The notes under the pieces are model-generated. The model did no database searches and was not told the origin of the DNA. It saw nothing but the letters and a program-made list of their open reading frames with translations. Shown in pieces: positions 14,864 through 30,005 of a stretch of 57,263 nucleotides of DNA. Source of the DNA: a virus. Taxonomy: Duplodnaviria > Caudoviricetes. The stretch is from positions 1 to 57,263 of IMG/VR virus record IMGVR_UViG_3300034156_000030; one strand, 5' to 3'. Position numbers and translations under genes: made by a program. Every line of letters begins with the position of its first letter. Within the stretch, counting starts at the first letter, position 1.

Positions 14864-14931
14864 AAAAAAGAAGAGTGTTGATTATTTTACTAATCTTGAT
14901 TCCTGTCTGCACATGGGAATCCATACTCTTC
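14864..14931 (-). ncRNA. Candidate structured small RNA A (three-way junction, ~68 nt)
   Basis: Starts immediately after a promoter motif; GAAGAGU/ACUCUUC closing stem, two internal hairpins, then a U6 tract; no RBS or ORF. Confidence 0.6.
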
Positions 14932-14956
14932 ATTAAACACCATGTTATTTCTGCGA
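14929..14956 (-). promoter_or_regulatory. Phage promoter motif, copy 2
   Basis: TCGC AGAAATA AC ATGGTG TTTAAT GAA. Confidence 0.75.
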
Positions 14957-15157
14957 GTTTATTATAGTACTAATTGATTTTAACAATTCACACTTTCTGA
15001 AAAGTCTATTTCCTAAATCTTTTATATTATGTCGAAGTTTTGTTTTTGTTTCGGGTGCATTTGTTTCACCCACATTTGATAACTCGGTTTCTAGACTATC
15101 AATTTGTTTATCCAAATCAATTACATCATTTATTAACATTTCAATTTTATTAGTCAT
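14945..15157 (-). CDS. Small coiled-coil hypothetical protein
   Basis: AAGGAGG RBS. Confidence 0.6.
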   Translation of the reverse strand: MTNKIEMLINDVIDLDKQIDSLETELSNVGETNAPETKTKLRHNIKDLGNRLFRKCELLKSISTIINSQK

Positions 15158-15175
15158 ATTATATGCCTCCTTTTT

Positions 15176-15385
15176 TTATTCATCATTCAAAGCTGTTACT
15201 TCCCAATGCTTAGCAGGCGTACTATAATATATGGTATTATCGTCGCCACGTACATCAAGAAGTATCTCTCCAAAGTCTTCAGGTTTTGGAGATGGAAATT
15301 TAGTAATAACAACACCAGTTGTTTCATTATTTTTGTTTTTTACTGTATCCATCAATGCTGGTTCTAAATCTTTAAAATAAGACAC
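15176..15385 (-). CDS. Small SH3/KOW-like hypothetical protein
   Basis: V.NK...TGVVI...LLDV...Y.TP...W beta-strand pattern. Confidence 0.55.
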   Translation of the reverse strand: MSYFKDLEPALMDTVKNKNNETTGVVITKFPSPKPEDFGEILLDVRGDDNTIYYSTPAKHWEVTALNDE

Positions 15386-15396
15386 ATTACACCTCC

Positions 15397-15591
15397 CTAA
15401 ATCTCATATAAATCAATTTTATTCACAGTTATTTCCACATCAAAATCTCTAAGTTTAATAGTGATTAATCGTTGGTCCTTATAAACAAAAGGATGTATTC
15501 GAAGTACAACTGCTGGTTGAAATGCGTATTCTTTAAAAGATTCTATTTTCTCATTTGAATTAGTAAAGATAACCGCACTACCCATTTTCAT
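15397..15591 (-). CDS. Small SH3/KOW-like hypothetical protein
   Basis: MKMGSAV...AVVLRI...ITI...V....L pattern; AAGGAG RBS. Confidence 0.5.
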   Translation of the reverse strand: MKMGSAVIFTNSNEKIESFKEYAFQPAVVLRIHPFVYKDQRLITIKLRDFDVEITVNKIDLYEI

Positions 15592-15605
15592 TATATATGC
15601 ACTCC

Positions 15606-16214
15606 TTAAGCTTTATTTTTCTGGCTCTCTAAAAATTCTTTTGTAGTAAATTCACCAAATTTTTCTTTCAACCATTTTTCCTGTGATTTGATTATAGCAT
15701 TAGCTAATTTATCGTCCAGTGGTTGTTTGTTCAGAAAATATTCTTCTAAAGGTTTACCATCTAAATAAGAAGTGGGTCTACCCAACTCATCAGCTTTTAA
15801 TCCATTTGTTGGGCAAGTTTGCCATAATCTTTTAGGAGCATCGTACGTATCATCTCCACCAACTTCCTGAATTACTACTATTTCTTCACCAGATGTCGGT
15901 GAGTTGTATATGTATATAACATCACCAATCATATTTTTTTCTTTATGTATTACTCGCTGTCCGATTTCAGTAGGTGTTGTAGTGTCAAGAGTGTTAAAAT
16001 AATTTATAACATCCTGACACATTACCTCTTCTTCAAATATAGTATTTAATGCCTCACCATTAGGAGACAGAATATATTTTCTTTCTATTACCTTTTGGTA
16101 CATATGTCCATCTTTGTAGAAGCATAAAACAAAAACTGCTGGGTTTGGATATTTTGGAGTATAATGTGTCTGCTCAATTTTAATACCCATACCCAATACG
16201 TTTAAAATATTCAT
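15606..16214 (-). CDS. Hypothetical protein with central SH3-like segment
   Basis: IGQRVIHKEKNMIGDVI segment resembles 15176. Confidence 0.6.
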   Translation of the reverse strand: MNILNVLGMGIKIEQTHYTPKYPNPAVFVLCFYKDGHMYQKVIERKYILSPNGEALNTIFEEEVMCQDVINYFNTLDTTTPTEIGQRVIHKEKNMIGDVIYIYNSPTSGEEIVVIQEVGGDDTYDAPKRLWQTCPTNGLKADELGRPTSYLDGKPLEEYFLNKQPLDDKLANAIIKSQEKWLKEKFGEFTTKEFLESQKNKA

Positions 16215-16231
16215 AATAATTCATCTCCTTT

Positions 16232-16483
16232 TTATTTATCCCAATCATCTATTATGATGTCAAAACCACAAGATTGTAATATTTTCGTTGACTCTTCATA
16301 AGTTTTACCATAAAAAGTGTGAGTAGACAAATAGTGATGTCCATTCCAATTTTTAAATTCCAAATCATTTTTAGGATGAATCCAACCACATCCATCTTTG
16401 ATTTCAAGGATATGTGTTTCTGATTCGCACTCAGATAATTCTTCCCAATTATGTATTATTTTAGGCATAATAACCTCTTCCAA
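16232..16483 (-). CDS. Hypothetical protein
   Basis: NWEELS, YLSTHTFYG; true start is probably MPKII. Confidence 0.6.
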   Translation of the reverse strand: MEEVIMPKIIHNWEELSECESETHILEIKDGCGWIHPKNDLEFKNWNGHHYLSTHTFYGKTYEESTKILQSCGFDIIIDDWDK

Positions 16484-16677
16484 AAGCTAGAGCGTTTAAT
16501 ATTAATAGCAGTATCAAAAGTAAACATTCTCGGCTCAATATCAAATTCAACATTATTACCGTTTCTTAATTTAGGATAATCTTTGATGTTAAAATCAAAT
16601 ATGGTACCTTCGATTGTTTGTATATAAGCAAAATCTTTACTCACTATACATACTTTACCATTACTCATATTAAACAC
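16456..16677 (-). CDS. Cold-shock-domain-like OB-fold protein
   Basis: G.V.....FAYI....G..F.F......L..G..VEF.I......A.NI resembles the CSD fold. Confidence 0.5.
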   Translation of the reverse strand: MFNMSNGKVCIVSKDFAYIQTIEGTIFDFNIKDYPKLRNGNNVEFDIEPRMFTFDTAINIKRSSFWKRLLCLK

Positions 16678-16699
16678 TCCATTCTTTTTAATTTAGATA

Positions 16700-17317: not shown

Positions 17318-17390
17318 TATTTATTCCTCCTAAAATTATCAACCTGAATATAATAACTATATCAATTATTGTCAATTTATCTTACTTATG

Positions 17391-17636
17391 TTAACTCTGT
17401 TCAATCACGGCGTCAAGTATTGTTTGTATATCTTTTGATATTATTTTTCTTTTAGTTACAGATATTTTCGCATTAATTTTGTTTAATATATTAATAGTCA
17501 TCAATTTTGCTACCATCTCTGTATCTATTTTACTATCATTTTTTGGAAATCTTATATTCTGTTCGCGATTACACTCTGGGCATAAATCTGTAGTAAATAC
17601 ACATCCACAGACATCACATGTTTTAGTTCGTTCCAT
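17391..17636 (-). CDS. Zinc-ribbon hypothetical protein
   Basis: CDVCG...CPEC. Confidence 0.6.
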   Translation of the reverse strand: MERTKTCDVCGCVFTTDLCPECNREQNIRFPKNDSKIDTEMVAKLMTINILNKINAKISVTKRKIISKDIQTILDAVIEQS

Positions 17637-17686
17637 TATATATTCCTCCTTAAATTAAAATTGTTATCTTTTGTATATTAAATATA

Positions 17687-18355: not shown

Positions 18356-18357
18356 AA

Positions 18358-18522: not shown

Positions 18523-18613
18523 GGTGATTTCTCCTTTCAATTTATGATGTTTAAGATTTAAGCCCTGAAATATACACATTTGTTTTACATTTATTCAATC
18601 AACTGTTAAAACA

Positions 18614-18979: not shown

Positions 18980-19007
18980 GGTGATTTCTCCTTTCAACTT
19001 TACGGTG

Positions 19008-19360: not shown

Positions 19361-19384
19361 AATAATCATCCTTTCGATTTTATT

Positions 19385-19412
19385 TTCATTATAGGACAAG
19401 TTATTGGCGCGA
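19385..19412 (-). promoter_or_regulatory. Phage promoter motif, copy 3
   Basis: TCGC GCCAATA AC TTGTCC TATAAT GAA. Confidence 0.78.
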
Positions 19413-19506
19413 GTTATTTATGAGACGAACATAAAAACCAAACAATATACTTATTATTAAAAGAATACAACCTTGTTGATATGACATAAATATGTTCCTT
19501 TCTAAT

Positions 19507-21300
19507 TTATATTTTATAAGTTTTTCTGTCTTTGAATTCTTGTTGTTTACCATCATTCCAATTTTGTACTGGGCGATAGTAACCTGTAATACGGCTGAAT
19601 ATTTCTGTTTTTCTACCACATGTAGGACACACATCTACTTCTCCATTTAAGTATCCGTGCGAAGAGCAAATAGAATATGTAGGTGATAACGTAAAATATG
19701 GTAGTTTATAATTCTCAGCTACCTTTTTTACTATACCTGCTGCAGTTTGCCAATCAGGAAGTTTCTCACCAACAAAACCATGAAATACAGTTCCTGAAGT
19801 ATACAGGATTTGAAGGTCGTCTTGTATTTCAAGAGCATCAAACATGTTGTCTGTATATCCAACTGGAAGATTACTAGAGTTGGTATAATACGGCGTAATT
19901 TCTTCTCTAGCATTGAATATATTATCAGTCACAATATCTGGGTATAATGTCTTGTCTTTTTTGGCAAATCGATAAGCAGTAGATTCGGCAGGGGTAGCTT
20001 CTAGATTATACAAGTCACCATATTGTTCCTGGTAATCACTTAATCTCAAACGAATGTGATTTAGTATATCCTTAGCAAAGTCTTGACTAACCGCATTGTG
20101 TAATGTCTTACCAATCCAATTAGCATTCAAACATGCTTCATTTATCCCAACAACACCTATTGTCGAGAAATGATGGTCAAAAGAGCCAAGATATCTTTTT
20201 GTGTATGGATATAATCCAATATTCAAAAGTTTAGTGATATACTCTCTTTTGAGTTTAAGAGACCTGGCGGAAATATCAAGTAATACATCGAGTCGTCCAT
20301 AGAAGTCTTTTTCGTCTTTAGCCAGATATGCAATTCTTGGAATATTCACAGTTACAACACCAACTGAACCAGTTGATTCACCAGAGCCAAAGAAGCCACC
20401 AGATTTTTTACGCAATTCTCTAAGGTCTAATCTTAATCTACAGCACATCGAACGAACATCACTTGGGTCCATATCTGAGTTGATATAGTTAGAAAAATAT
20501 GGCGTTCCATATTTAGCAGTCATTTCAAAGAGAAGACCGTTATTTTCAGTGTCAGACCAATCAAATTCTTTTGTGATGGAATATGTTGGTATAGGATATT
20601 GAAATCCTCGTCCATTAGCATCGCCCTCTAACATAATTTCAAGGAAGGCTTTATTAACCAAGTTCATTTCTTGCTGACAATCTTTATATTTGAAGTCCAT
20701 TTGGAATCCACCAACCATAGCAGGAAGTTCAGATAAATCTTTTGGTACAACCCAATCTAATGTTATATTACAGAAAGGCGATTGAGTTCCCCAACGAGAT
20801 GGAGTATTTATTCCAAATATGAACGATTGTATGCATTGTTTTACATCTTTATAAGACATATTATCAACCTTAACAAAAGGCGCCAAATATGTATCAAAAG
20901 AAGAGAATGCTTGTGCTCCAGCCCATTCATTTTGCATTATTCCAATAAAGTTAACCATCTGATTACACAAAGTAAAAAGATGTTTAGCAGGTGCGGATGA
21001 TATTTTACAATCTACTCCGCCTACGCCTTCTTGAATAATTTGCATCAAACTCCATCCAGCACAATATCCAGTTAACATTGATAAATCGTGCAAATGAATA
21101 TCAGCCTTTTTATGAGCGTCGGCAATTTCTTTATCATATACTTTAGAGAGCCAGAATTCTTTAGTTATCTCTCCAGAATTTGAGATTATGAGTCCACCTA
21201 TAGAATAGTTGACAGTGCTGTTTTCTTTAACATTCCAACTGCTTCTATCGATGTAATCTTCTATCAACTTAATGTTTCTTATATTCATAGAAACCTCCAA
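19507..21300 (-). CDS. nrdD: Anaerobic (class III) ribonucleoside-triphosphate reductase, no ATP cone
   Basis: HLHDL...YC.G, SMCCRL, TPAES, C..HG...CP.CG, SRITGYYRP glycyl-radical motif. Confidence 0.95.
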   Translation of the reverse strand: MEVSMNIRNIKLIEDYIDRSSWNVKENSTVNYSIGGLIISNSGEITKEFWLSKVYDKEIADAHKKADIHLHDLSMLTGYCAGWSLMQIIQEGVGGVDCKISSAPAKHLFTLCNQMVNFIGIMQNEWAGAQAFSSFDTYLAPFVKVDNMSYKDVKQCIQSFIFGINTPSRWGTQSPFCNITLDWVVPKDLSELPAMVGGFQMDFKYKDCQQEMNLVNKAFLEIMLEGDANGRGFQYPIPTYSITKEFDWSDTENNGLLFEMTAKYGTPYFSNYINSDMDPSDVRSMCCRLRLDLRELRKKSGGFFGSGESTGSVGVVTVNIPRIAYLAKDEKDFYGRLDVLLDISARSLKLKREYITKLLNIGLYPYTKRYLGSFDHHFSTIGVVGINEACLNANWIGKTLHNAVSQDFAKDILNHIRLRLSDYQEQYGDLYNLEATPAESTAYRFAKKDKTLYPDIVTDNIFNAREEITPYYTNSSNLPVGYTDNMFDALEIQDDLQILYTSGTVFHGFVGEKLPDWQTAAGIVKKVAENYKLPYFTLSPTYSICSSHGYLNGEVDVCPTCGRKTEIFSRITGYYRPVQNWNDGKQQEFKDRKTYKI

Positions 21301-21421
21301 TATATAATTTACTTGTTAAAAGTTGTATCATATGCTAAAATCCATTCAGTTTGTGAATCATGATTGATAAACAATCTTTTTGGGATAGTATACCATTTAA
21401 TATATATAAAATATATTGTGT

Positions 21422-21862
21422 TCATATCAATCCTTTCTCTATTTTTATTATTTGTTGGTTGCTACTACCATACATTTTACCAGTTATTATATTATTAATT
21501 TCAAATTTACCATCAACAATATAATCAACCATATTAGCTAATTCTGTATGTTTTATATCTTTATATTTAAAACCTGTATAAATCCATACATTTAAATGTT
21601 TAGGTAGAAGTTTTAAAAGTTCTATACACTTATCTTGCTGAAAGAAAGGATCACCTCCGGATAGAGTTATACCATCTAAGTAAGTATATTTTTTTATGTC
21701 GTCTAGAAGTTCCTGTGTTGATATCTCTTTACCACCATTAAAATTCCATGAGTCTGGATTCTGACACCCGTCACAATGATGTCTACATCCCTGACAAAAT
21801 ATGACATAGCGAGTTCCATAACCATTAATAAATGAGCAATTTAATGTTCCTGCTATTCTCAT
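21422..21862 (-). CDS. nrdG: Class III RNR activase (radical SAM)
   Basis: NG.G.R...F.QGC.H.C.GCQN, LSGGDP, GSSNQ. Confidence 0.95.
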   Translation of the reverse strand: MRIAGTLNCSFINGYGTRYVIFCQGCRHHCDGCQNPDSWNFNGGKEISTQELLDDIKKYTYLDGITLSGGDPFFQQDKCIELLKLLPKHLNVWIYTGFKYKDIKHTELANMVDYIVDGKFEINNIITGKMYGSSNQQIIKIEKGLI

Positions 21863-21864
21863 GA

Positions 21865-22386
21865 TTAACCTAACCTTTTATTTTTTAATTTTTGTTTTAA
21901 TTTCTTTAATTGTTTATCTTTATACATTAAAATATCAGCCTCAAACATAGCAAAGCCAATAGTTTCGTTTGCTGTTTTATGTGTAGTTCCTATTGCAGCT
22001 TCTGAAAATATGTGAAATATCGGTGATACACTGAACACTAAGAATTCATCTCCTCCTAATCTAAATACTAATTCCGAAGTTAATTGTAACGTGTCAGCAA
22101 TGTCTCTTATCAGTATATCACCAGCCTGATGACCTTCTAAATCATTAATTTGCTTTAATCCGTTAATATCAATAATAGAAACATACATATCCATATTATC
22201 ATATTTATTACGGAATTCTTCCAACATATTTCTATTGTATACACCAGTTAATTTATCAGTAAAAGCAAGTTTATAAAGTTCGTCTTTAGTTTTATCAACA
22301 TACGTAGATGTTAAAACAAAAGTTGGCTTGTTAAATAGAACTTTGTAGAGAATACTTTTAAACAATGATAATACAGATTTTAACAT
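21865..22386 (-). CDS. GGDEF-domain diguanylate cyclase
   Basis: D.LTGVYNR, IDINGLKQIND..GH.AGD, RLGGDEF, AD..MY..K. Confidence 0.9.
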   Translation of the reverse strand: MLKSVLSLFKSILYKVLFNKPTFVLTSTYVDKTKDELYKLAFTDKLTGVYNRNMLEEFRNKYDNMDMYVSIIDINGLKQINDLEGHQAGDILIRDIADTLQLTSELVFRLGGDEFLVFSVSPIFHIFSEAAIGTTHKTANETIGFAMFEADILMYKDKQLKKLKQKLKNKRLG

Positions 22387-22406
22387 TATAATCTCCCCTT
22401 TTTTGT

Positions 22407-22445
22407 AAAAAAGAGAAGATGCTTAAATCTCTTTAAACATCTTTC
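22407..22445 (-). terminator. Terminator hairpin (duplicate 1)
   Basis: AAGATGTTTAAA GAGA TTTAAGCATCTT CTCTTTTTT; differs from the 22653 copy by one loop base. Confidence 0.7.
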
Positions 22446-22459
22446 TTGGTTAATGGTTA

Positions 22460-22642
22460 CTACAGTGAATACATATTTTTGCAATAGCAACGATGTGAAT
22501 AATTTGCTTCCTTTATTTTTTGTCTGGCCTCTGCTCTTTTAACTTGCCTAGATTTGGGTCTCAAGAAAACCACAACAGGATGAAATAGGAATTTAAAATA
22601 CTTAATAAACCTTTTAATCAATTCAATCATTAGGATTACCAC
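22460..22642 (-). CDS. Small basic hypothetical protein
   Basis: GAAAGGTG RBS; followed by a terminator. Confidence 0.55.
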   Translation of the reverse strand: MVILMIELIKRFIKYFKFLFHPVVVFLRPKSRQVKRAEARQKIKEANYSHRCYCKNMYSL

Positions 22643-22652
22643 CTTTCAACTT

Positions 22653-22690
22653 AAAAAGAGAAGATGCTTAAATTTCTTTAAACATCTTTC
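22653..22690 (-). terminator. Terminator hairpin (duplicate 2)
   Basis: AAGATGTTTAAA GAAA TTTAAGCATCTT CTCTTTTT. Confidence 0.7.
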
Positions 22691-22706
22691 TGATTGATAG
22701 TTTCAA

Positions 22707-22922
22707 TTATGGATTTACTACATCACTTATGGTTTTCAAGCCATCTGTTAATTCTTCCGGATTTAAATCTTCAACCAATTCAAGGAGCTGTTCTTTACTG
22801 TTGTTTCTCAGGGTTACTATTACCGCTATTCCTGCTACCACACCAGCAACTATTAAAGTTCCTTTGATGATTGTTGATTTATTATCTCCTACAAATTTAC
22901 CAAACATGCTTTTTTCTTTCAT
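22707..22922 (-). CDS. Small single-TM membrane protein
   Basis: Downstream of a promoter motif; GTLIVAGVVAGIAVIV helix. Confidence 0.65.
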   Translation of the reverse strand: MKEKSMFGKFVGDNKSTIIKGTLIVAGVVAGIAVIVTLRNNSKEQLLELVEDLNPEELTDGLKTISDVVNP

Positions 22923-22950
22923 GATGATCATCCTTTCAATTTTTATTATC

Positions 22951-22978
22951 TTCATTATAGTCCTTGTATTTTTTGCGA
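22951..22978 (-). promoter_or_regulatory. Phage promoter motif, copy 4
   Basis: TCGC AAAAAAT AC AAGGAC TATAAT GAA. Confidence 0.78.
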
Positions 22979-22983
22979 GTTAA

Positions 22984-23622
22984 TTAAGGTTCCATGTAGA
23001 TAATACCTTTACCTAGCTTTTTAGCATAAAGAATCTCGCTAGCAGTACCATCACCTATATACTTATTTTTGTTAACTACATAGATAAAATCAGACATATC
23101 TATTTTTTGAAGATGTAAATCAACAAGCATAGCTATTTGAAAGTCTGACATATCTAGATTATCTGCATGATCAAAGAAAGGTAATGATAATACCACGTGT
23201 CCAGCTAATGTTAGATTATACTGCACCTCAAGTATATCTTTTTTAAAACTTGTACCGCCACAAATTGTAATTACTAATGATTTTTCTTTTTCACTTCGTA
23301 ATACCGATTTATCATCCCAATATTCGTCAGCCATTATCTTTCTTGAATCACCTTGATATTTATCTATGATTTCTGGCAGATTCTCGTTAATACCTGACAG
23401 TTTAATATCAAAATGTTCACAGAAAGCCACTGCTTGTTCTAAAGCCTCACCCGTACGACAAGTCCATAAAACAATTTTTGCTCCTCTTTTTATTTCTTCT
23501 TTAACTTTATTAATATTATGTATAATTGGCTCACCAAGTTTTGGCCATTTATCAGTCATTAAACATCCGTCGAAATCAAGAGCAATAATTTTTGATTTTT
23601 TCTTTTCCATTAAAATCATCAA
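22984..23622 (-). CDS. HAD-family phosphatase fused to a nucleoside-deoxyribosyltransferase-like domain
   Basis: ALDFDG, WTCR, K..AD.Y.DD in the N-terminal half; ITICG...L...GH.VL...H..KID.SD...YIG..T..EI.YA in the C-terminal half. Confidence 0.7.
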   Translation of the reverse strand: MMILMEKKKSKIIALDFDGCLMTDKWPKLGEPIIHNINKVKEEIKRGAKIVLWTCRTGEALEQAVAFCEHFDIKLSGINENLPEIIDKYQGDSRKIMADEYWDDKSVLRSEKEKSLVITICGGTSFKKDILEVQYNLTLAGHVVLSLPFFDHADNLDMSDFQIAMLVDLHLQKIDMSDFIYVVNKNKYIGDGTASEILYAKKLGKGIIYMEP

Positions 23623-23628
23623 CCTTTC

Positions 23629-24126
23629 TTAATTAGACGTTGAACCAAGCCCACCAATTCTTTCTTCACATAGCGGTATATCATCATCAGCCAGTAGGTA
23701 GTTATAGAATGTTCCTTGTGCAATAGCATCTCCAGCTTTTACATCAAATATTTTATTACCAGTATTTACTAGTTTTAGGAAAATATGACCTTCATTTTTT
23801 ATATTGTTATAATAGTCTGAATCAACTTTTCCTATGGTGTTAGCGATTTGAATTCCATATTTGAAACTTATGCCACTTTTTGGGAATATTAATAATTCCT
23901 CATCATCCAGCATATAAGCCTTTATTCCAAGAGGTATAACAATATCTTCTCCTGGTAATAGTGTAAAACTGCAAGGGGCATATAAATCATATCCAGAACT
24001 TCTTCTTGTTGCTCTTTTTGGTGTTTTTATATTGCAATAATCATGATTTTTATCCATACCAACATCTTTTAAATATTGAAGCATTGAAATTACTTCAAAT
24101 CCGCGTGTTTTGATCATAATAATCAT
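23629..24126 (-). CDS. dut: Trimeric dUTPase
   Basis: S.GYDL, PKSG, G.VDSDYY, IAQG, R.GG.GST. Confidence 0.92.
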   Translation of the reverse strand: MIIMIKTRGFEVISMLQYLKDVGMDKNHDYCNIKTPKRATRRSSGYDLYAPCSFTLLPGEDIVIPLGIKAYMLDDEELLIFPKSGISFKYGIQIANTIGKVDSDYYNNIKNEGHIFLKLVNTGNKIFDVKAGDAIAQGTFYNYLLADDDIPLCEERIGGLGSTSN

Positions 24127-24141
24127 CCTTTCAATTTTTAT

Positions 24142-24321
24142 TTAATTTTTAAGTTTCGCGTAATAACTTGCTGCAGACACGAATTCTGATGTTGTTATAA
24201 TGCCATCACGTAGACCATTACTATAAAGTCTAGTATAACATTTTTCATCGTTCGGGTATAAATCTTTTAGAATTTTAGTTGTATTTTCTATATTTTGTAC
24301 GACTAAAAGATATTCGTGCAT
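24142..24321 (-). CDS. Hypothetical protein (59 aa, below the ORF-track cutoff)
   Basis: MHEYLLVV...YYAKLKN, translated by hand; fills the gap, with AGGT RBS. Confidence 0.5.
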   Translation of the reverse strand: MHEYLLVVQNIENTTKILKDLYPNDEKCYTRLYSNGLRDGIITTSEFVSAASYYAKLKN

Positions 24322-24353
24322 AAAATCAACCTACCTTTTTTAATTTACAACAA

Positions 24354-24611
24354 TTAAACCTCTGTTGTTAATTCTTTAAAAAGTTCCAAGTAGTATTCAA
24401 AGTTATGAAATCTAGTTAACATCCTTTTTATATTAGCATCTTTAATTGCTTCTTCTGCCAATTTTATTTCTTTTTCTAGGTCTAATATAAGATCTAGAAT
24501 TTGAAATTGTTTAGTGTAATGTTTGTTCTCGTCAATTATTTCTCTTTCGTATTTTTCAATAGTTTTCTTCATAATTTCAATTTGTATAGGTAAATATTCT
24601 TGTACAGTCAT
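24354..24611 (-). CDS. Coiled-coil hypothetical protein
   Basis: AAAGGAG RBS. Confidence 0.6.
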   Translation of the reverse strand: MTVQEYLPIQIEIMKKTIEKYEREIIDENKHYTKQFQILDLILDLEKEIKLAEEAIKDANIKRMLTRFHNFEYYLELFKELTTEV

Positions 24612-24626
24612 GATATCTCCTTTATT

Positions 24627-24896
24627 TTAATCAGGAATTCTCATCCAATGTGTTATTTTTACTCCTCTATTGATTTCTATTGTTGTTCCGCCATAATGTT
24701 CAATAGAACGACCATTGTTTATTACTCGTGAACTTCTACTATGTTGTTCATACCATTCGCCGTCTACTAATTCAGCAATAAGTGGTAGAGAATACGCATT
24801 TGCCAGCGCATATCTTACTAAAAACCATTCCTCTGTATCAGAATCAGGTAAGCGCTCATCAACAGAAATACATACACCGAATGTAATACCACTCAT
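24627..24896 (-). CDS. DUF551-like phage protein
   Basis: ISV.ERLP...ITHWM.IP signature. Confidence 0.7.
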   Translation of the reverse strand: MSGITFGVCISVDERLPDSDTEEWFLVRYALANAYSLPLIAELVDGEWYEQHSRSSRVINNGRSIEHYGGTTIEINRGVKITHWMRIPD

Positions 24897-24908
24897 ATTA
24901 ACTCTCCT

Positions 24909-25748
24909 TTATTTTGGATATTTGGGCGTTACAGTATAATTAAGGACTAAACAAGGTTCTCCATCTTGTGATAATTGAGTACTGAATGTGATTTCAATCA
25001 TACCTTTTTCTACATCCCAACCCATCTGTTCACCAAGTTGTATATCTGGCAATCCGAGTTTGTAATACAACTCATTTATTGAAAGGAACATAGAACTCAT
25101 CAAAGTATAATTCAACTCGTTTACCGTTCTACGAATCTTTTCTATATCACTACGGAAATATCGTCCACTTAAGCTGTCATAACACATAACTGAACCATTA
25201 CCTGTAATTAATACTTCGTTCGTAGAAACTGGATTCTTTTTTATTCTGTCTGCTGATATTTCATCACGGATTTTAGTTTCTTTGTTGGCTCCGATAGTTT
25301 CAATAACTTTAGTCTGATATTCCTTAAATGCTGCCTCTGTGATGCCATATATGCTCGCTAGGGCTGCATTACGACGAAGAGAAATATGATTAGCACCAAT
25401 TATACAGCCTATAGTTACTAAGCCTAATACGGTCGCTGGTACGTATTCTCTCCATGTAAGTTGTATGATTTCTTTTTTTGTTAACATATGAGTAGTATCA
25501 CTCCACGTATAACCTTCTTCAACTCCTAGCCATTCTTCAAAAGTAAGATGACTACTAATACTATCTTCTTCATACATATCATATATATGATTATCTACGA
25601 TAGATAAAGCTTTTGGTGTTGCTCGAATAGCCATTATAGTCGTACTTACAAGTCCAGCAACTGCCACACCTGTAAGAATAGTTGGACTATTTTTAGAAAT
25701 GACTCCACCGAGATTTTTTATCATTAGTGAAATATTTGTTAACTCCAT
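24909..25748 (-). CDS. DUF6353-like phage protein (paralog of 13875)
   Basis: KNSPTILTG, RATPKA, CYDSLSGRYF, SINELY..LGL. Confidence 0.7.
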   Translation of the reverse strand: MELTNISLMIKNLGGVISKNSPTILTGVAVAGLVSTTIMAIRATPKALSIVDNHIYDMYEEDSISSHLTFEEWLGVEEGYTWSDTTHMLTKKEIIQLTWREYVPATVLGLVTIGCIIGANHISLRRNAALASIYGITEAAFKEYQTKVIETIGANKETKIRDEISADRIKKNPVSTNEVLITGNGSVMCYDSLSGRYFRSDIEKIRRTVNELNYTLMSSMFLSINELYYKLGLPDIQLGEQMGWDVEKGMIEITFSTQLSQDGEPCLVLNYTVTPKYPK

Positions 25749-25767
25749 AGTGAGGATCTCCTTTCTA

Positions 25768-25896
25768 TTAACAGAATAACCAAGTTACAAGTTTAACGGT
25801 GATAGCAATAATCGACACTACAGCACAAACTAATATTGTTATGCAAAAAAGACTAACTGCAGAATCAACACCTTTATTATTTTCACTATATTTCAT
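25768..25896 (-). CDS. Small TM protein (42 aa)
   Basis: MKYSEN...SLFCITILVCAVVSIIAITV..., AAAGGAG RBS; translated by hand. Confidence 0.5.
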   Translation of the reverse strand: MKYSENNKGVDSAVSLFCITILVCAVVSIIAITVKLVTWLFC

Positions 25897-26065
25897 TTTT
25901 AATATCTCCTTTCTCTACTTTAATGCTCATATTATCACATTTGAAATTTATCTTTATTCCACCTTCTGTTCCATTAGGAATAGTAATATCAGTATTAACA
26001 TTTTTTGCTTCATACATAATGCCTTTTTTAAGAAGTGCAGATATAATCATATCAGTGATTGTCAT
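25886..26065 (-). CDS. Hypothetical protein (59 aa)
   Basis: MTITDMIISALLKKG..., AAGGGG RBS; translated by hand. Confidence 0.5.
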   Translation of the reverse strand: MTITDMIISALLKKGIMYEAKNVNTDITIPNGTEGGIKINFKCDNMSIKVEKGDIKNEI

Positions 26066-26090
26066 ATGGTTATTCCCCTTTCAAGTTATA

Positions 26091-26186
26091 TTATTTGTGC
26101 TTATTTAGACATTTAACGTATACAACTAAACCAACTATGGTTGAAAATAATAAGCAATTTAATATAATAGTATCTACAATTTTCAT
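26091..26186 (-). CDS. Small TM protein (31 aa)
   Basis: MKIVDTIILNCLLFSTIVGLVVYV..., AGAGG RBS. Confidence 0.45.
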   Translation of the reverse strand: MKIVDTIILNCLLFSTIVGLVVYVKCLNKHK

Positions 26187-26207
26187 AGTATACCTCTTTT
26201 CTGTACA

Positions 26208-26318
26208 TCAATGTGTCCTCATAAATCGGATAGCGACCCACATTAACCAAAATCCTCCTGTACAGCATACCATGATAAAATCAAATACTAGACTACAAAA
26301 TCCATATTTCTTTTTCAT
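26208..26318 (-). CDS. Small TM protein (36 aa)
   Basis: MKKKYGF..LVFDFIMV..TGGFWLMWVAIRFMR, AAGGGATG RBS. Confidence 0.55.
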   Translation of the reverse strand: MKKKYGFCSLVFDFIMVCCTGGFWLMWVAIRFMRTH

Positions 26319-26345
26319 AGTAATCATCCCTTCAAGTTTTACTTG

Positions 26346-27119
26346 TTATTCTTTATTATTGATATGTATATCAGCAAGTGATTTATATTCAACTTTACCT
26401 ATAGCTTTTAAATTGTCGGAAAGTGTGTCATATTTAACATTTGGAAATTCAATACCTTTAAGAATATCATCTAACTCGGGTTTAGTATCATATGTCCAAT
26501 AAGCACAAAGCATATTCCAGACGAATGCTCTATCATGTGGTTCGTCCGTATCGCCCCTTAGATGTTTGAGAAAATGCCTAACACCAGAATCAATGTAACA
26601 ATGTAGTGGCATTCCTTTCATCCAATTATTTTCACAATATTTTTTAGCACCATCTTCAAAGTGTATTGATACTTCCAACATCAAAGTTGTTAAATTCGTT
26701 TTTTCATTATCCGCAAAAATACAAAGTGCCTGATTCAAAAATGCTGTATTTTTTGTTCTTTTGAAATGCTCAATAGAGTTTAATTCATCCCTCATAAGAA
26801 TTCTTGATAGTACACTTAATGGTAATAAATCACATCTACCTTTTCCATCACTGATATCTCTTACTGCACCTGTACCAAAATCTCTTCTTTCGCCATTGTC
26901 TTTTAAATCCATAGTTAATACCTCTCCTTCTTTATTTGTAAAGAATACTGTGTTACCAATATCATCTTGTAAGAAGTCTATGTGTCGACACGATTCATAT
27001 CTAACTCTAAATGTTGAAAAAGTGACTGCGATAACTTCCCCAAATATGGTAGTAGTATGTCCATTATAAGGTCTATATACTGTCGCCTTAATAAAATCTC
27101 CAATTTTAGCACTAATCAT
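26346..27119 (-). CDS. dATP/dGTP diphosphohydrolase (DUF5664-like) with N-terminal SH3-like domain
   Basis: F.TGAVRD...GKGR.DLLP, GAKKY..NNW.KG, S..RH...D.DE.H...WN; internal RBS and ATG at 26912. Confidence 0.8.
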   Translation of the reverse strand: MISAKIGDFIKATVYRPYNGHTTTIFGEVIAVTFSTFRVRYESCRHIDFLQDDIGNTVFFTNKEGEVLTMDLKDNGERRDFGTGAVRDISDGKGRCDLLPLSVLSRILMRDELNSIEHFKRTKNTAFLNQALCIFADNEKTNLTTLMLEVSIHFEDGAKKYCENNWMKGMPLHCYIDSGVRHFLKHLRGDTDEPHDRAFVWNMLCAYWTYDTKPELDDILKGIEFPNVKYDTLSDNLKAIGKVEYKSLADIHINNKE

Positions 27120-27217
27120 TATTTCACCTCCATTATTATGATTTATATATTAAATATAACCTTATTTTGACCTTAAAATAGGTTAAAAATGACCAAATTA
27201 ACAATAGGGCATATAGA

Positions 27218-27328
27218 AGCCATTTTAAGCGTTTTTACCCTTTACAGGTCATATTATATTACCTACTAATCAAAAGTGTCTTAGAATCAATCCTCAGAGG
27301 TCGTTTTTTCTAAAAGTGCGAAAAAAAT
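27218..27328. repeat. 111-bp direct repeat, copy 1 (palindromic core)
   Basis: Matches 30637-30747 with 3 mismatches by eye. Confidence 0.9.
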
Positions 27329-27338
27329 TAAAAATTAT

Positions 27339-27397
27339 AGAAATAGTACGAAGTGCAGTCCTTTATTTTCGGATATGCACTCCCATATACTATTCTT
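27339..27397 (-). other. Long interrupted hairpin
   Basis: AAUAGUA/UACUAUU, GGAGUGCA/UGCACUUC and UCC/GGA stacked stems. Confidence 0.55.
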
Positions 27398-27454
27398 GTT
27401 AAATTCACATGATACTCACTCCTTTAATTACTTATGTGTGATATTAGAAAATAT

Positions 27455-27515
27455 AAAAAGTAAGTATAGATATTTAACTATCTAATTACGCACCTTACAT
27501 ACGTACTTACCTCTC
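27455..27515 (-). ncRNA. Candidate structured small RNA B (three-way junction, ~61 nt)
   Basis: Follows a promoter motif; GUAAGUA/UACUUAC closing stem, CGUAU/GUGCG and UAGAUA/UAUCUA hairpins, then a U tract. Confidence 0.6.
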
Positions 27516-27540
27516 ATTAGAGGATGTGTTTTTATCGCGA
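27513..27540 (-). promoter_or_regulatory. Phage promoter motif, copy 5
   Basis: TCGC GATAAAA AC ACATCC TCTAAT GAG. Confidence 0.75.
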
Positions 27541-27662
27541 GAATATTAAAAGTAATATGGAAAACATCATCAATGTTAATGCTAATGCTAATGCTATTAG
27601 AACTAATATAATTCCTTTAATAATATTATCAAAGAAGTTTTTAATATAATCATCTCCTTGTG

Positions 27663-27742
27663 AAAAAAAGAGTCTTCGGATTCGAACCGATTTCGCCATT
27701 ATTGCTAATGGTGTTTTACTTTTTTAAACTAGCTCACTCTTC
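27663..27742 (-). ncRNA. tRNA-like RNA with non-canonical anticodon arm and acceptor stem
   Basis: UA-GUUU...AAAC D arm, CCAUUA-GCAA-UAAUGG arm, UCGG-UUCGAAU-CCGA T arm, AAGAGU/ACUCUU end stem, U7 tract; no encoded CCA. Confidence 0.7.
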
Positions 27743-28228
27743 ACTATAGACTGTGTTATTCTTGCGATCTTGTATGAATACCCATTTACCAATATCTTGA
27801 AAATTAAAAGTTTCATAATGTCTTTCTCCCACATATGTAACTATAAAGGTATATTCATCCATTTGTGTGATTTTACCAAATCTCATTTTACTACCATTAT
27901 GAGGTTTCACACTAACTGAATCTCCAATAGAACAGACAGCCACTGCAAAGTGCATAAGATTTAATACTTTATCTTTTTTCTTCTGTATCATTTCTTTAAT
28001 AGAAACTGAATCACAATCCGTTACATATACGTCTTGTTTATCGCATTCCTCTTTAACTAGTTCATAGACAGCCCTAACGTCTATAAATTCTTGTTGCATT
28101 TTATCAACACTAGAGGGCTCTCGATTCCATTTGTTATCTATTCCAAAGCGTATAGCTTTAGAAGCTTCTTTTTGTAACTCACTACACTCTTCCATTAAAC
28201 AAACTAATAAATATTCTACTTTAGTCAT
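27734..28228 (-). CDS. MazG-like NTP pyrophosphohydrolase with C-terminal SH3-like domain
   Basis: LMEECSELQKEASKAIRFG...EFIDV (EExxE...ExxD). Confidence 0.7.
   Translation of the reverse strand: MTKVEYLLVCLMEECSELQKEASKAIRFGIDNKWNREPSSVDKMQQEFIDVRAVYELVKEECDKQDVYVTDCDSVSIKEMIQKKKDKVLNLMHFAVAVCSIGDSVSVKPHNGSKMRFGKITQMDEYTFIVTYVGERHYETFNFQDIGKWVFIQDRKNNTVYSEE
27740..27767 (-). promoter_or_regulatory. Phage promoter motif, copy 6 (drives the tRNA-like RNA)
   Basis: TCGC AAGAATA AC ACAGTC TATAGT GAA, embedded in the 3' end of the MazG-like ORF. Confidence 0.72.
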
Positions 28229-28241
28229 GTTTTATTCTCCT

Positions 28242-28757
28242 TTAAAAACGATATTTAATAGTAAACTGTATTTCTGGTAAATCAATTATTTTTTGTTTTG
28301 ATATATGAAACCAATCCTTGTCACAAATATCGGGTGTTAAGCCATATTCAGGGTTACTTCTAATTTCTTTTAATTCACCAGAAAGTCTTGCTCTTAGTAA
28401 ATAAAACCAACACGGTTCAAACGCAAAACTTAATTTATCAGCCCAGCATAATTTACTAATATCCACATGTACTAATTTAGCATAAGACCTCGAATGACCT
28501 GCACATAATAAATATTCTTTGTGAGAGAATAACATACCTGCTATTTTGGCGCCTAATGCTGGATGATATTTACCTTCATCCATTCGTTCACCATCTAAAT
28601 TAGGTTTACCAAAATATCCCCAATCATGTATGAATATACATATAAGTTCTTTAAAGGATGGTCGTCCGTATAAATATAACCAAGCTCTGCAGACTACAAA
28701 TGGATGCCAGAATATTTGGTGTATTCCAAATAACAAACTTTTTGTACCAATTTTCAT
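28242..28757 (-). CDS. HD-domain phosphohydrolase-like protein
   Basis: H...IHDWG...HP..GA...H....ADK metal-ligand pattern. Confidence 0.65.
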   Translation of the reverse strand: MKIGTKSLLFGIHQIFWHPFVVCRAWLYLYGRPSFKELICIFIHDWGYFGKPNLDGERMDEGKYHPALGAKIAGMLFSHKEYLLCAGHSRSYAKLVHVDISKLCWADKLSFAFEPCWFYLLRARLSGELKEIRSNPEYGLTPDICDKDWFHISKQKIIDLPEIQFTIKYRF

Positions 28758-28775
28758 AATTATTTCTCCTTTCAA

Positions 28776-29012
28776 TTAACATTGCCAATTTAATAGCTCG
28801 ATATGAATATCTAACTTTGTTAAAAATATTAAATCTTTTTTAAATTTAGCCCATTTATTAGTCTTTCCATAAATGTTTATTTGCACATAATCATCAGTTA
28901 ACATAAAATATGATACTGAAAAATCATATGTTTTAGCTAAATTAATAATCTTTAAATAGTCTTCATTTTTTAATCTAGTTTTTATGTCTGATATAAATGT
29001 TTTCATAAACAT
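28776..29012 (-). CDS. Hypothetical protein
   Basis: 78 aa with GGAAGGA RBS. Confidence 0.55.
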   Translation of the reverse strand: MFMKTFISDIKTRLKNEDYLKIINLAKTYDFSVSYFMLTDDYVQINIYGKTNKWAKFKKDLIFLTKLDIHIELLNWQC

Positions 29013-29332
29013 ATCCTTCCTCTTATTAAATTACATTTATTTCTTTGGTTTACCAATAGTTAGACTAGTGTCAATATTAGTAGTAATACTAAATGCTATT
29101 TTGTTACTAATGGACAGTCCTATACAAATACCACCGATAATAGAACCTCCAATGATTATCATATTTACCATAATAATAGTTTTAATCATATATAAACCCC
29201 CTTATCCATAATAATTTCGTCTGTATATAATCTTTGCTTTATAACCGTTAATACGTAATAACCAATAAGTAAAACGTGCATCTTCTGATATTGAATATCC
29301 TTCTATTCCATAATCCCAAATTACAATCCACA

Positions 29333-29518
29333 TTATGTATTAGGTTTGATTTCTACGAACAATTTACAACAACATTGATTGTTTTCTCTCTTCTTTTTGC
29401 ATGGGCAAATAGTGTCTACTGACCACTCATGTGCCGGTACACATGGACATTGACCGTCTGTAATTCTTAATCGATCTTCTATTGCACTCACTATTTTCTT
29501 ATCTGGATTTAATTTCAT
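29333..29518 (-). CDS. Ferredoxin:thioredoxin reductase catalytic-subunit-like Fe-S protein
   Basis: CPC-x10-CPC-x8-CCC.LF matches the FTR CPC/CPC/CxC pattern; AGGAGG RBS. Confidence 0.8.
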   Translation of the reverse strand: MKLNPDKKIVSAIEDRLRITDGQCPCVPAHEWSVDTICPCKKKRENNQCCCKLFVEIKPNT

Positions 29519-29530
29519 TATATTTCCTCC

Positions 29531-29815
29531 TTAAAATTTTACTTTAATTAATTTCTCTGGATTTAATGCTGACCAATTTTCGTAAAGTTCTTTCAATTTT
29601 ATGTCAGGAAATTCTTGGTTACACCATTTCATTGTCTCTTCAAAACTGATTATCGCGCCTACTCTAACACCTTTCATAAATATTTTTTTACACATATAGA
29701 AAGTACCTAAAGTTAAAACCCCACAACCAGCCATTAATGCAATTATTTGTAACTCTCTTTTGTTTTTCTTTAAAAAATCAATTTTGTGATCTTTCATATT
29801 TATTACTTTTCCCAT
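29531..29815 (-). CDS. Single-TM membrane protein
   Basis: Start moved to MGKVIN after the GAAAGGG RBS. Confidence 0.6.
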   Translation of the reverse strand: MGKVINMKDHKIDFLKKNKRELQIIALMAGCGVLTLGTFYMCKKIFMKGVRVGAIISFEETMKWCNQEFPDIKLKELYENWSALNPEKLIKVKF

Positions 29816-29852
29816 TATAATCACCCTTTCAAAATATTTATATATTAGCGAC

Positions 29853-30005
29853 AAAAAAAGAATCCGTAATCGCATCGAACGATTTTGCTGCCCAACTAAT
29901 TGTTTGGCTACCTATGACAGTGCCAAGACAGTCCGTATTTGAGTTCTAGTGCTACCTAGTCTTTATTCTATGGACATTTACATTCCATACAACTCTATTC
30001 TTTTC
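29853..30005 (-). ncRNA. Candidate structured RNA C (~153 nt, multi-domain, with a T-arm-like hairpin)
   Basis: Follows a promoter motif; AAAAGAAU/AUUCUUUU end stem, three-way junction, second helical domain, AAUCG-UUCGAUG-CGAUU hairpin, U7 tract. Confidence 0.65.

Follow-up and report, generated by a model that had tools for sequence, protein, structure and literature searches.

In T7-type units a class III promoter is followed by a structured 5′ leader and a hairpin-plus-U terminator, and the initially transcribed sequence is GGGAGA. In the lambda PR′–tR′ '6S' unit a near terminator follows the promoter just upstream of genes, so that a short RNA is made constitutively and read-through, by Q antitermination, is needed. 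The put RNA of HK022, promoter-proximal and about 65–70 nt long, forms two hairpins, is not known to have an enclosing stem or a U tract of its own, and acts through the host polymerase, with the result that downstream terminators are suppressed. Among tRNA-like RNAs and phage-encoded tRNAs, the comparators are mascRNA, YrlA and the T4 stable RNAs. For the YonO polymerase, the consulted parts of the source mention an unannotated non-coding RNA at a YonO-dependent start and describe the YonO promoter as still to be determined (PMC5467207). A preprint describes an 'HTH/RdRP-like' protein of an actinobacteriophage–Lactococcus–Faecalibacterium phage supergroup; by term search the word 'promoter' occurs 0 times in it, and the part consulted gives no promoter sequence (Koert et al., bioRxiv 10.1101/842583). 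Neither source, in the parts consulted, contains a promoter sequence, motif or cassettes of the phage studied here.

We analysed a window of 57,263 nt, which is a nearly complete 57-kb phage with all its genes on the minus strand. A sequence-only reading had proposed that three small RNAs of this phage, units A, B and C, constitute a single RNA motif family. Our results support the existence of promoter-linked, ORF-free, structured units with terminal U tracts, and add two that had been missed, unit D and a partial analogue, unit E. The features common to A, B and C stem, however, from a generic expression cassette and not from one RNA family: the start after a −10-like box, the closing stem and the U tract are explained because the cassette carries them with unrelated cargos. 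On sequence grounds, we favour with moderate confidence a reading in which A, B, C and D would be autonomous units that make small RNAs and terminate themselves and, in addition, leakily attenuate the gene downstream.

A phage-specific promoter motif and its probable reader

Units A, B and C lie on the minus strand within intergenic gaps, and the sequences quoted for them were all found in place. The first base of each is directly preceded by a 25-nt motif, TCGCR-N4-WWAC-N6-TATAAT, which by pattern match occurs 10 times in the window, always on the minus (coding) strand, and not once in 100 shuffles. The spacing of its blocks is not sigma-70-like, and sigma-70-like sites are not enriched in the window (115 in a consensus scan versus 113.9 in shuffles). 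The promoters proposed for the units are thus confirmed, but as copies of a phage-specific motif. The promoter of unit A (TCGCAGAAATAACATGGTGTTTAAT, 14932..14956) would place +1 at the G at 14931. Those of units B (27516..27540), C (30006..30030, directly after a simple terminator hairpin at 30041–30054) and D (27743..27767) also match the full pattern, and all four are on the minus strand. Six other minus-strand copies, spanning 19385..31367 (31340–31367, 31094–31121, 30535–30562, 30301–30328, 22951–22978 and 19385–19412), lead straight into an SD and a gene, and one more, a variant, is found on the same strand at unit E. Beyond the window, the motif is present in at least 100 IMG/VR stretches, with 315 instances across 907 kb. 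Streptomyces phage Scap1 carries three copies and Arthrobacter phage Correa four (read by eye); Lactococcus phage CHPC971 has none in its first 50 kb.

The window encodes a putative two-barrel (YonO-like) RNA polymerase of 881 aa (349..2994, minus strand; phrog_4291, E = 0; HTH Pfam matches). This protein belongs with YonO of SPbeta and the 'HTH/RdRP-like' group, and it has the DFDGD motif, at residues 499–503. Its homologues are found in 250 phage records, and its nearest relative is only 70% identical; the enzymes of Scap1 and Correa are each about 52% identical to it, and that of CHPC971 38%. Since the motif is also present in Streptomyces and Arthrobacter phages with the same polymerase, it is probably the promoter of that enzyme, and the 881-aa protein is probably its reader.

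Folds of the units and the closing stem

The folds of units A and B were run from the first base past the −10-like box to the U tract and compared with 200 shuffles. For the 68-nt unit A RNA (14864..14931, minus strand), the minimum-energy fold is exactly the three-way junction that had been described: GAAGAGU and ACUCUUC form a 7-bp closing stem that begins at nt 1 and encloses two hairpins, one of them with a GUAAAA loop, and U6 comes last (z = −3.12; 3/200 shuffles as good). In the unit B RNA (27447..27515, minus strand) an 11-bp closing stem that begins at nt 1 (GAGAGGUAAGU...) encloses two hairpins and is followed by U5-AUAUUUU. Folded over 64 nt (27452–27515) it also forms a three-way junction as claimed (z = −3.91; 0/200 shuffles as good), the closing helix measuring 9–11 bp. 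The two units have the same architecture and a similar size. The outcome is different for unit C, a 153-nt RNA (29853..30005, minus strand) in which nt 1–9 (GAAAAGAAU) pair with the 3′-end AUUCUUUUU, followed by U7. The whole unit folds with this 9-bp closing helix (z = −3.12; 0/200 shuffles as good), but the three-way junction attributed to its 5′ domain (29941–29995) does not come out as the minimum-energy fold, whether the domain is folded by itself (z = −1.75) or within the 153-nt unit. The CUAG-GUAGCA-CUAG hairpin is the only part of it left in the fold, and the cargo of unit C is predicted to be a long irregular fold.

Unit D (27660..27742, minus strand), 230 nt upstream of unit B, is a tRNA-like cloverleaf by its fold and by covariance model R1, which was built from 12 anticodon-less tRNA-like RNAs of relatives only. 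Its 7-bp closing stem starts at nt 1 (GAAGAGU/ACUCUUU); the D-like arm is weak, the place of the anticodon arm is taken by a CCAUUA-GCAA-UAAUGG hairpin, and the T arm UCGG-UUCGAAU-CCGA and U7 complete the unit. It is the top window match to model R1 (33.9 bits, E 3.8e-6, a rough value; model positions 1–81), a model that scores a true tRNA-Lys at 36.5 bits; its fold alone is not significant against shuffles (z = −1.59). The cargo is thus not one family, as unit D is predicted to be a tRNA-like cloverleaf without anticodon loop while A and B are predicted to be minimal two-hairpin junctions.

What A, B, C and D do have in common is a closing stem in which GARRR, from nt +1, pairs with the last bases ahead of the U tract. 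The closing stems had been thought to differ completely; this does not hold, as their 5′ arms are the conserved GARRR start of the promoter, and A and D share GAAGAGU. By sequence, the closing stem and U tract of the four units qualify as a putative intrinsic (factor-independent) terminator. A stem closed around a multi-branch loop is an unusual form of such a terminator, and a simple terminator scan, whose loop limit was 8 nt, left the units unlisted. On the entire minus strand there are four distinct long-range closing stems followed by T5, three of which (A, B and D) start at most 3 nt from a promoter +1.

The cassette promoter was defined as TCGCR-N4-WWAC-N6-TNTART immediately upstream, a pattern that A, B, C and D match in full and E as a variant. 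The same closing-stem rule is followed in relatives. The script thresholds were set after the data had been inspected. A strict stem at the first base after TATAAT, with a T tract, is present at 40/225 promoter-linked GARRR sites versus 241/18,513 others, a 14-fold enrichment. Of 50 cassettes, 22 have their outermost paired base at position 0 and 21 have it at −1 to −3, whereas just 5 have it downstream of +1; the sharpness of the +1 boundary could be partly due to the upstream bases being fixed as TATAAT. Leader and 3′ arm are matched within each cassette: over 46 cassettes the best Watson–Crick run averages 5.5, versus 4.26 ± 0.12 when the leaders are permuted among them, and 0/500 permutations reach 5.5. 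Within one homologous cargo family the stems compensate each other (GAGAAGA/TCTTCTC versus GAGAAGG/CCTTCTC). Finally, at least four T are found in the 9 nt after 35/36 closing stems, where 2.5 are expected, no T requirement having been imposed.

Recurrence in relatives and a model of the cassette

Dozens of related viral contigs share this cassette design, the cargos they carry being unrelated. In 50 cassettes of relatives, the cargo has one hairpin in 10, two in 13, three in 26 and four in 1, and GNRA accounts for 11/30 tetraloops (about 4% expected), a sign of genuine structure. The cargos of A, B and C had no homologue among the loci compared. The cargo in relatives is often a tRNA-like cloverleaf with a tetraloop instead of the anticodon loop; in those inspected, GNRA, UUCG or another short loop replaces it, and the acceptor-type stem begins with nt +1 or +2. 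The quality of these cloverleaves ranges from good to poor. With D and T arms, they yielded 7 Rfam tRNA (RF00005) matches at gathering score, in 7 of the 14 loci searched, and ARAGORN assigned 'anticodons' of 2 or 4 nt to 5 of 8 genes. In the window itself ARAGORN finds 0 tRNAs and Rfam has 0 matches at gathering score; at E ≤ 10 there is no tRNA match around A, B, C or D, and matches around the units are noise (snoRNA and miRNA models, 13–20 bits), with no riboswitch or leader family that has a three-way junction. The units match no Rfam family, which fits the earlier view of an unrecognised kind of RNA. Compared with phage tRNAs, the relatives' cargo reaches the Rfam tRNA gathering score and unit D has the T loop UUCGAAU; unlike them, the acceptor end is fused to the constant start of the promoter and runs into the U tract, no CCA is seen, and units A, B, C and D are recognized neither by Rfam tRNA nor by ARAGORN.

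The absence of RBS and ORF holds within the units, and genes follow closely. The next gene is about 10–40 nt beyond A, C, D and E and has no promoter of its own; for unit A it is the DUF6353 gene (start 14825), with SD and start 30–40 nt downstream, and only a short candidate ORF comes after unit B. In relatives, an SD and a gene come directly next, without a new promoter, in 34/50 cassettes, and in 8/50 the next element after the T tract is another promoter, which makes tandem units. Because so many cassettes, together with A, C, D and E, lead directly to an SD and a gene, termination must be incomplete, and the units may act purely in cis.

We propose the following model. The phage's own 881-aa two-barrel polymerase most likely reads TCGCR-N4-WWAC-N6-TATAAT, and transcription would begin at or next to the G following TATAAT; each transcript would therefore open with the conserved purine-rich GARRR(N). 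A structured cargo of 50–150 nt would come next, then a 3′ arm complementary to the leader, then the U-rich tract. The leader/3′-arm helix and the U tract would act as an intrinsic terminator and a compact RNA would be released, both ends of which would be paired and so, in our proposal, protected from exonucleases. Termination is probably leaky; as the next gene is promoterless for A, C, D and E, the unit would throttle it.

Such a cassette resembles T7-type units in its polymerase-specific promoter conserved into a purine-rich start (GARRR here), its paired 5′ end and its stem with U's. In contrast with them, the enzyme is a two-barrel YonO-like one with HTH, not a T7-like single-subunit polymerase, the start is a probable one, and leader and terminator are one helix, formed by the two ends of a single short RNA. 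As in the lambda 6S unit, a promoter and a terminator are found at short range ahead of genes; unlike it, there are many copies per genome, the structured cargo is diverse, and some tandem units have no gene behind them. In the present phage we identified neither a Q-like factor nor a pause signal. HK022 put is also a promoter-proximal two-hairpin phage RNA of similar length, which recalls the earlier idea of an RNA polymerase ligand; here, however, the element resembles a terminator in its own right and carries freely varying cargo, and by analogy its enclosing stem and U tract speak against placing it in the put class.

Competing explanations

The units might act only in cis, as insulating terminators and/or 5′-end stabilisers or attenuators of the downstream gene, the small RNA having no function of its own; we regard this as possible, if on balance doubtful. 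In one version the start would lie about 7 nt beyond the −10 box, own transcripts would lack the 5′ arm and read through, and transcripts arriving from upstream would terminate; a sigma-70-type start at this distance past TATAAT would indeed leave the 5′ arm of A and D untranscribed from their own promoter. The near-universal U-rich tail and the prevalence of cassettes in which an SD and start codon come first, with no promoter between, as at A, C, D and E, agree with a cis role, and a stem at the very 5′ end is a known design of Firmicutes 5′ mRNA stabilisers and T7 leaders. On the other hand, tandem promoter–RNA–terminator arrays, with a fresh promoter directly after the cassette, make little sense as 5′ UTRs, and elaborate conserved tRNA-like cloverleaves with D and T arms, together with the GNRA enrichment, exceed what a terminator or stabiliser needs. 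In addition, since the acceptor-type stem of the tRNA-like cargos begins with nt +1 or +2, transcription has to include these bases. A simpler view would be that ordinary intergenic terminators lie beside −10-like boxes by chance: the genome is AT-rich, so that TATAAT-like and T-rich strings are common, and sigma-70-like sites are as frequent as in shuffles. This view is already disfavoured, and we consider it extremely improbable, given the full motif that no shuffle reproduces, the position of three of the four long-range stems at a promoter +1, the 14-fold enrichment in relatives and the leader–arm fit that no permutation attains.

The sequence-only reading placed A, B and the 5′ domain of C in a new motif family, defined by a three-way junction, AUGU in hairpin 1 and a GUNNNA hexaloop in hairpin 2; in this view they would be decoys of a common protein partner. 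Both motifs are indeed in all three units (the loops being GUAAAA in A, GUUAAA in B and GUAGCA in C), A and B are alike in architecture and size, and two-hairpin junctions recur in relatives (13/50 cassettes). Nevertheless GUNNNA accounts for only 2/15 hexaloops overall, one of them that of A itself, and AUGU is found in 11/50 of the relatives' cassettes, both at the level that composition predicts; moreover, the motifs were defined after three cases had been seen. A, B and C share no alignable sequence, an attempted alignment of A, B and the C 5′ domain gave no common register, the C junction is not the favoured fold, and the cassette accounts for the shared closing stem and U tract. A single family therefore appears highly unlikely. 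Somewhat less remote, though still distinctly unlikely in our view, is that A and B are eroded relics of D-like cassettes, with a 7-bp acceptor-like stem and a 5–6-bp hairpin in the T-arm position, kept only as still-working terminators. The degenerate tRNA-like unit D close to B and the range of good to poor cloverleaves in relatives are consistent with such erosion, as is the sum of the unit A closing stem (7 bp) and 3′-proximal hairpin (5 bp), 12 bp, which is the length of a tRNA acceptor/T minihelix. Against it, A, B and C are outside the 19 matches of model R1 and outside Rfam tRNA, both at E ≤ 10, they lack a T-loop motif, and the hairpins of A and B are well formed (z about −3 to −4), which suggests a structure that is maintained rather than decaying.

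If A, B, C and D are self-terminating small-RNA units, as we favour, our guess is that the RNAs mimic tRNAs or other RNAs and thereby tie up host factors for tRNA binding or RNA processing. A broader proposal, which we rate as unlikely, is that a cross-phylum siphophage lineage (infecting Actinobacteria and low-GC Gram-positives) with its own two-barrel polymerase carries a 'plug-in' small-RNA system, whose cargos (D-type anticodon-less tRNA mimics, A/B-type mini-junctions) would act in trans, as decoys or inhibitors, on host enzymes of tRNA-directed defence or RNA processing. Were this true, GARRR would double as the 5′ arm of the terminator helix, and a complementary arm with a U tract would turn whatever cargo precedes them into an end-protected small RNA.

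Unit E (3835..3922, minus strand) is only a partial analogue. It has no 5′–3′ closing stem, its fold is not significant (z = −1.04), and its promoter is the variant copy, in which TATAAT is followed by AGAGGGG and +1 would be at 3897. A 5′ hairpin is followed by a second hairpin with U7, immediately upstream of the exonuclease and RNA polymerase genes.

A candidate promoter and its probable polymerase

The window is an entire IMG/VR virus record of 57,263 bp, with an estimated completeness of 96% and a GC content of about 31%. All its large ORFs lie on the minus strand, in an order that runs from the terminase and structural genes (57–32 kb) through a block of small genes (32–11 kb) to the replication genes (11–0.3 kb), the last of which (349–2994) encodes an 881-amino-acid protein. 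This protein matches phrog_4291 ('RNA-dependent RNA polymerase') with E=0, carries HTH domains and a DFDGD motif (residues 499–503), shares about 52% identity with proteins from phages of Streptomyces, Arthrobacter and Gordonia and 37–38% with Lactococcus phage proteins, and is also matched by Faecalibacterium phage records. In a preprint, it is proposed from HHpred and the DxDGD motif to be a YonO-like two-barrel RNA polymerase and a signature of this phage supergroup (bioRxiv 10.1101/842583). A homologue carried by Rhodococcus phage ReqiPoco6 bears the label 'structural protein', a tentative lead and the sole hint that the polymerase might be carried in the virion, which would imply the early expression proposed by the sequence-only reading; literature searches returned nothing specific on virion proteomics of the polymerase.

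A recurring motif was noticed when the intergenic gaps of the window were listed. TCGCR-N4-WWAC-N6-TNTARTGAR has 10 matches in the window, each of them on the coding strand, against zero in 100 shuffles. These copies span 31367–14929 (minus), and an eleventh, variant copy lies at about 3898–3922 (minus); the motif is thus limited to the small-gene block and to the region before the exonuclease and RNAP genes, with no copy in the structural module. Units A (14864–14931), B (27447–27515) and C (29853–30005; all minus), which the sequence-only reading had put forward as members of one small-RNA family, alike start at the first base after the TATAAT-like block. A stricter version of the motif is present in at least 100 IMG/VR stretches, which together with the window provide 315 instances, 292 of them unique, and most of these lead straight into a Shine–Dalgarno (SD) sequence and a gene (SD within 30 nt in 204 of the 292). 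Streptomyces phage Scap1 has three copies of an almost identical motif (at 23101, 23769 and 24061) and Arthrobacter phage Correa, by eye, has four (at 4926, 5888, 6743 and 7762); in Lactococcus phage CHPC971, the polymerase of which is more distant, the initial 50 kb lack it.

It is improbable that the motif serves as a host sigma-70 promoter, since it is common to high-GC actinobacterial phages and to this low-GC phage, since it tracks the shared polymerase, and since WWAC lies only 6 nt from the TATAAT block. We infer from these sequence comparisons that TCGCR-N4-WWAC-N6-TATAAT-GARRR is a candidate promoter of the phage two-barrel RNA polymerase, which would give a concrete consensus and a probable start site to a widespread polymerase family. 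The accessible text on YonO states that its promoter was still to be determined (PMC5467207), a term search of the preprint text returned 'promoter' 0 times (bioRxiv 10.1101/842583), and as far as their texts were available neither source gives a promoter sequence for this polymerase group. Literature searches found no paper that gives this motif or describes the RNAs discussed below. Leaderless translation from the ATG inside TATAATGAA was rejected by eye, because in promoters with a short leader its reading frame ends within a few codons and because this ATG straddles the probable start.

Two pairs of near-identical terminator hairpins were found in the window, one (GGAAGCUUAGGCUUC) at 31131–31066 and 30338–30274, the other (AGAUGUUUAAAGARAUUUAAGCAUCU) at 22706–22643 and 22459–22387; each hairpin of the first pair is fused to a promoter copy downstream, suggesting duplicated terminator–promoter modules. 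Separately, a near-identical repeat of about 140 nt (82% identity over the whole alignment, close to 100% in the core) occupies two intergenic gaps (30513–30790 and 27120–27345, minus). It holds a sigma-70-like AAGACA-18-TATAAT and a conserved transcribed stretch in which the only ORF has 5 codons; a promoter for the host polymerase, with a leader or small RNA of another type, is a possible reading of it.

Pairing of the predicted transcript start with its own 3' end

At a minority of promoters a structured stretch and a T tract come next, instead of an SD and a gene. In such cassettes the sequence right after TATAAT, GAAGAG or a variant of it, is complementary to that directly ahead of the T tract. 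Stems starting at the exact first base, strictly scored, were found at 40 of 225 promoter-linked sites, compared with 241 of 18,513 other GARRR sites. The 328 unique promoters yielded 50 cassettes, of which 22 have the outermost paired base at position 0, 21 have it at −1 to −3 and 2 still further upstream; in the other 5 it lies downstream of +1. When leaders were permuted among 46 cassette candidates the mean best Watson–Crick run was 4.26 ± 0.12, compared with 5.5 observed, a value reached in 0 of 500 permutations. Closing stems of at least 7 bp, scored with no requirement for T residues, were present at 36 of 312 promoters, and 35 of these 36 are followed by at least four T in the next 9 nt (2.5 expected). 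Compensating changes between closing stems were seen in one cargo family of several contigs. Finally, the coding strand of the window has only four distinct long-range stems followed by T5, three of which are units A, B and D (27660–27742, minus; overlooked by the sequence-only reading) at the promoter +1. An initial loose count of closing stems (64 of 292, with 29–47 in controls) was without discrimination because G–U pairs with T-rich sequence inflate the controls, and was replaced by the stricter tests.

Given the results on stems at the first base, leader permutation, T tracts and stems within the window, the closing stem and U tract that had been taken as features of one RNA family are properties of a general expression cassette. 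In many cassettes (for instance in the related viral contigs L046, L064, L066, L067, L082 and L113, and in unit B) the 3' arm is followed by UUUAUAUUUUU or CAUUUUU rather than by a plain U run, and such a string could form a sequence-specific element of the terminator.

Units A, B and C and the cargo of other cassettes

Unit A lies in the gap 14944–14826, unit B in the gap 27531–27120 and unit C in the gap 30045–about 29815 (all minus). Folding reproduced for A and B the closing stem, two hairpins and U tract originally described, with z scores of −3.1 and −3.9 from the base after the −10-like box, and of −3.5 and −3.2 with more flank. Folded over its full 153 nt, C has significant structure (z −3.12; 0 of 200 shuffles), with nine bases at the 5' end pairing with those that directly precede U7; another fold is favoured over the three-way junction drawn in its 5' domain (29941–29995), both for that domain by itself (z −1.75) and for the whole unit. 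The window has no Rfam match at gathering score, and searches around the units at E≤10 gave nothing above noise; ARAGORN found no tRNA in the window. The observation is largely real, but a single motif family is not supported: MAFFT found no common register for A, B and the 5' domain of C. The two signatures ascribed to it are not general either, GUNNNA accounting for 2 of 15 hexaloops in cassettes and AUGU being present in 11 of 50 cassettes. A riboswitch reading of A and B was rejected because there is no Rfam match, because the junction strands are only 2–3 nt long, and because the cargo varies freely across cassettes.

No relative found was close enough for the inner hairpins of A, B and C to be compared for covariation. 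Nothing resembling unit A lies upstream of the DUF6353 gene in 31 loci, a search with the neighbouring 257-amino-acid protein gave no relatives, and RNAP relatives are at most 70% identical and on short contigs. A metagenome search with NrdD gave 80 loci at about 75% identity, which are probably cellular or unrelated since none has the promoter. Short-word BLAST of the A–E cargos (E, 3835–3922, minus, is a partial analogue) against the collected loci gave only chance matches of 14–23 nt, and no useful hit was obtained when phage records were queried with the A region by megablast and blastn. The window has two DUF6353 paralogues (PF19880, E about 1e-75; 13875–14825 and 24909–25748, minus), of which only the former has a cassette, unit A, upstream.

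The 50 folded cassettes have three hairpins in 26 cases, two in 13 (the class of A and B), one in 10 and four in 1. A T-arm motif is present in 16 of the 50, and 11 of 30 tetraloops are GNRA (about 4% expected). The Rfam tRNA model matches 7 cassette or near-cassette RNAs in 14 loci, and ARAGORN called 8 genes in 31 loci, 5 of them 'tRNA-???' with 2- or 4-nt anticodons, because a short stable loop replaces the anticodon loop. R1, a covariance model made from 12 anticodon-less tRNA-like cassette RNAs of relatives, found 10 further members in 849 kb. The starts of four of these coincide with the end of a recognisable promoter, and those of two others lie 13–14 nt beyond one; a bona fide tRNA-Lys also matches the model, at 36.5 bits. 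R1 does not match A, B or C, and its best match in the window is unit D (27663–27744; 33.9 bits, E 3.8e-6, full length), in which a GCAA-capped hairpin takes the place of the anticodon arm and the T loop is UUCGAAU.

A 55-amino-acid ORF (27532–27699, minus) begins at an ATG without SD inside the GCAA hairpin of unit D; beyond the U tract of D come AAGGAG and a hydrophobic tail in the same frame (...ILVLIALALALTLMMFSILLLIFSR), for which an ordinary start codon at SD distance is lacking. This suggests a candidate small membrane peptide of uncertain start. Two other cassette RNAs are conserved among related contigs. One, of about 95–115 nt with the motifs AAGACACGA ... UUUUCGUUGGA, occurs at L038:3229, L068:3816, L126:654 and L090:12212 and in L073/L105, and has no Rfam match at gathering score in L038, L068 and L126, which were searched; the other (ACGUAGUGAURCGAAUGUAGGUAC...) is in L113 and L064. 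L126 also carries a Pistol ribozyme (RF02679, 55.8 bits; 2338–2400); a true tRNA-Lys, outside any cassette, lies about 300 nt upstream of it.

Proposed small-RNA units and attenuation

T7 polymerase starts at G residues after TATA, and the probable start proposed here, a G after TATAAT, resembles this arrangement. The phage polymerase would start at or next to this G and transcribe the cargo, the emerging 3' arm would pair with the constant 5' leader, and this helix together with the U tract would end transcription and release a compact RNA that is paired at both ends. A look-up of RNA runs over 26900–31500 of the window listed none. In 8 of 50 cassettes the T tract leads directly into another promoter, and such tandem arrays argue for autonomous units. 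A gene without its own promoter comes next after 34 of the 50 cassettes, and likewise after A, C, D and E, so that read-through must occur and the units would also behave as attenuators or leaders. The main rival is a role in cis only, one version of which holds that the promoter's own transcripts start downstream of the 5' arm and escape termination; this version fits poorly with the tRNA-like cargos, the acceptor-type stems of which use bases from +1 or +2 onward. Judging from these arrangements, we lean towards the combined reading, in which the cassettes would be self-terminating small-RNA units and also attenuators or leaders of the downstream gene.

Small-RNA and tRNA-like genes that bring a promoter and terminator of their own are known from phages, and the cassette is a variant of these; what literature searches did not turn up is this cassette design, in which small structured RNAs are coupled to a phage-specific promoter. 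Many phage small RNAs that are overlooked or mislabelled in tRNA and Rfam scans are picked out by the rule that a constant transcript start pairs with the 3' end of the same RNA. Should the RNAs be made as proposed, phages that infect bacteria of gut, rumen and soil would make varied anticodon-less tRNA mimics, and these putative mimics bear on how phages deal with tRNA-directed host defences; a decoy function, as suggested in the sequence-only reading, is possible. The promoter, polymerase and self-terminating design might also be used as an orthogonal expression part.

Two further features of the window lie upstream of genes. Several GTTACAC/GTTACA repeats and their inverse (GTGTAACAGTAAC) are found at about 9700–9990 (minus, in the gap 10434–9691), upstream of the gene for a 1322-amino-acid primase-polymerase; they are iteron-like, and possibly an origin or operator. 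The end of the record (57099–57263, minus), upstream of the first gene, is a long near-perfect inverted repeat, and a 180-nt stretch comprising it folds at −66.6 kcal/mol.
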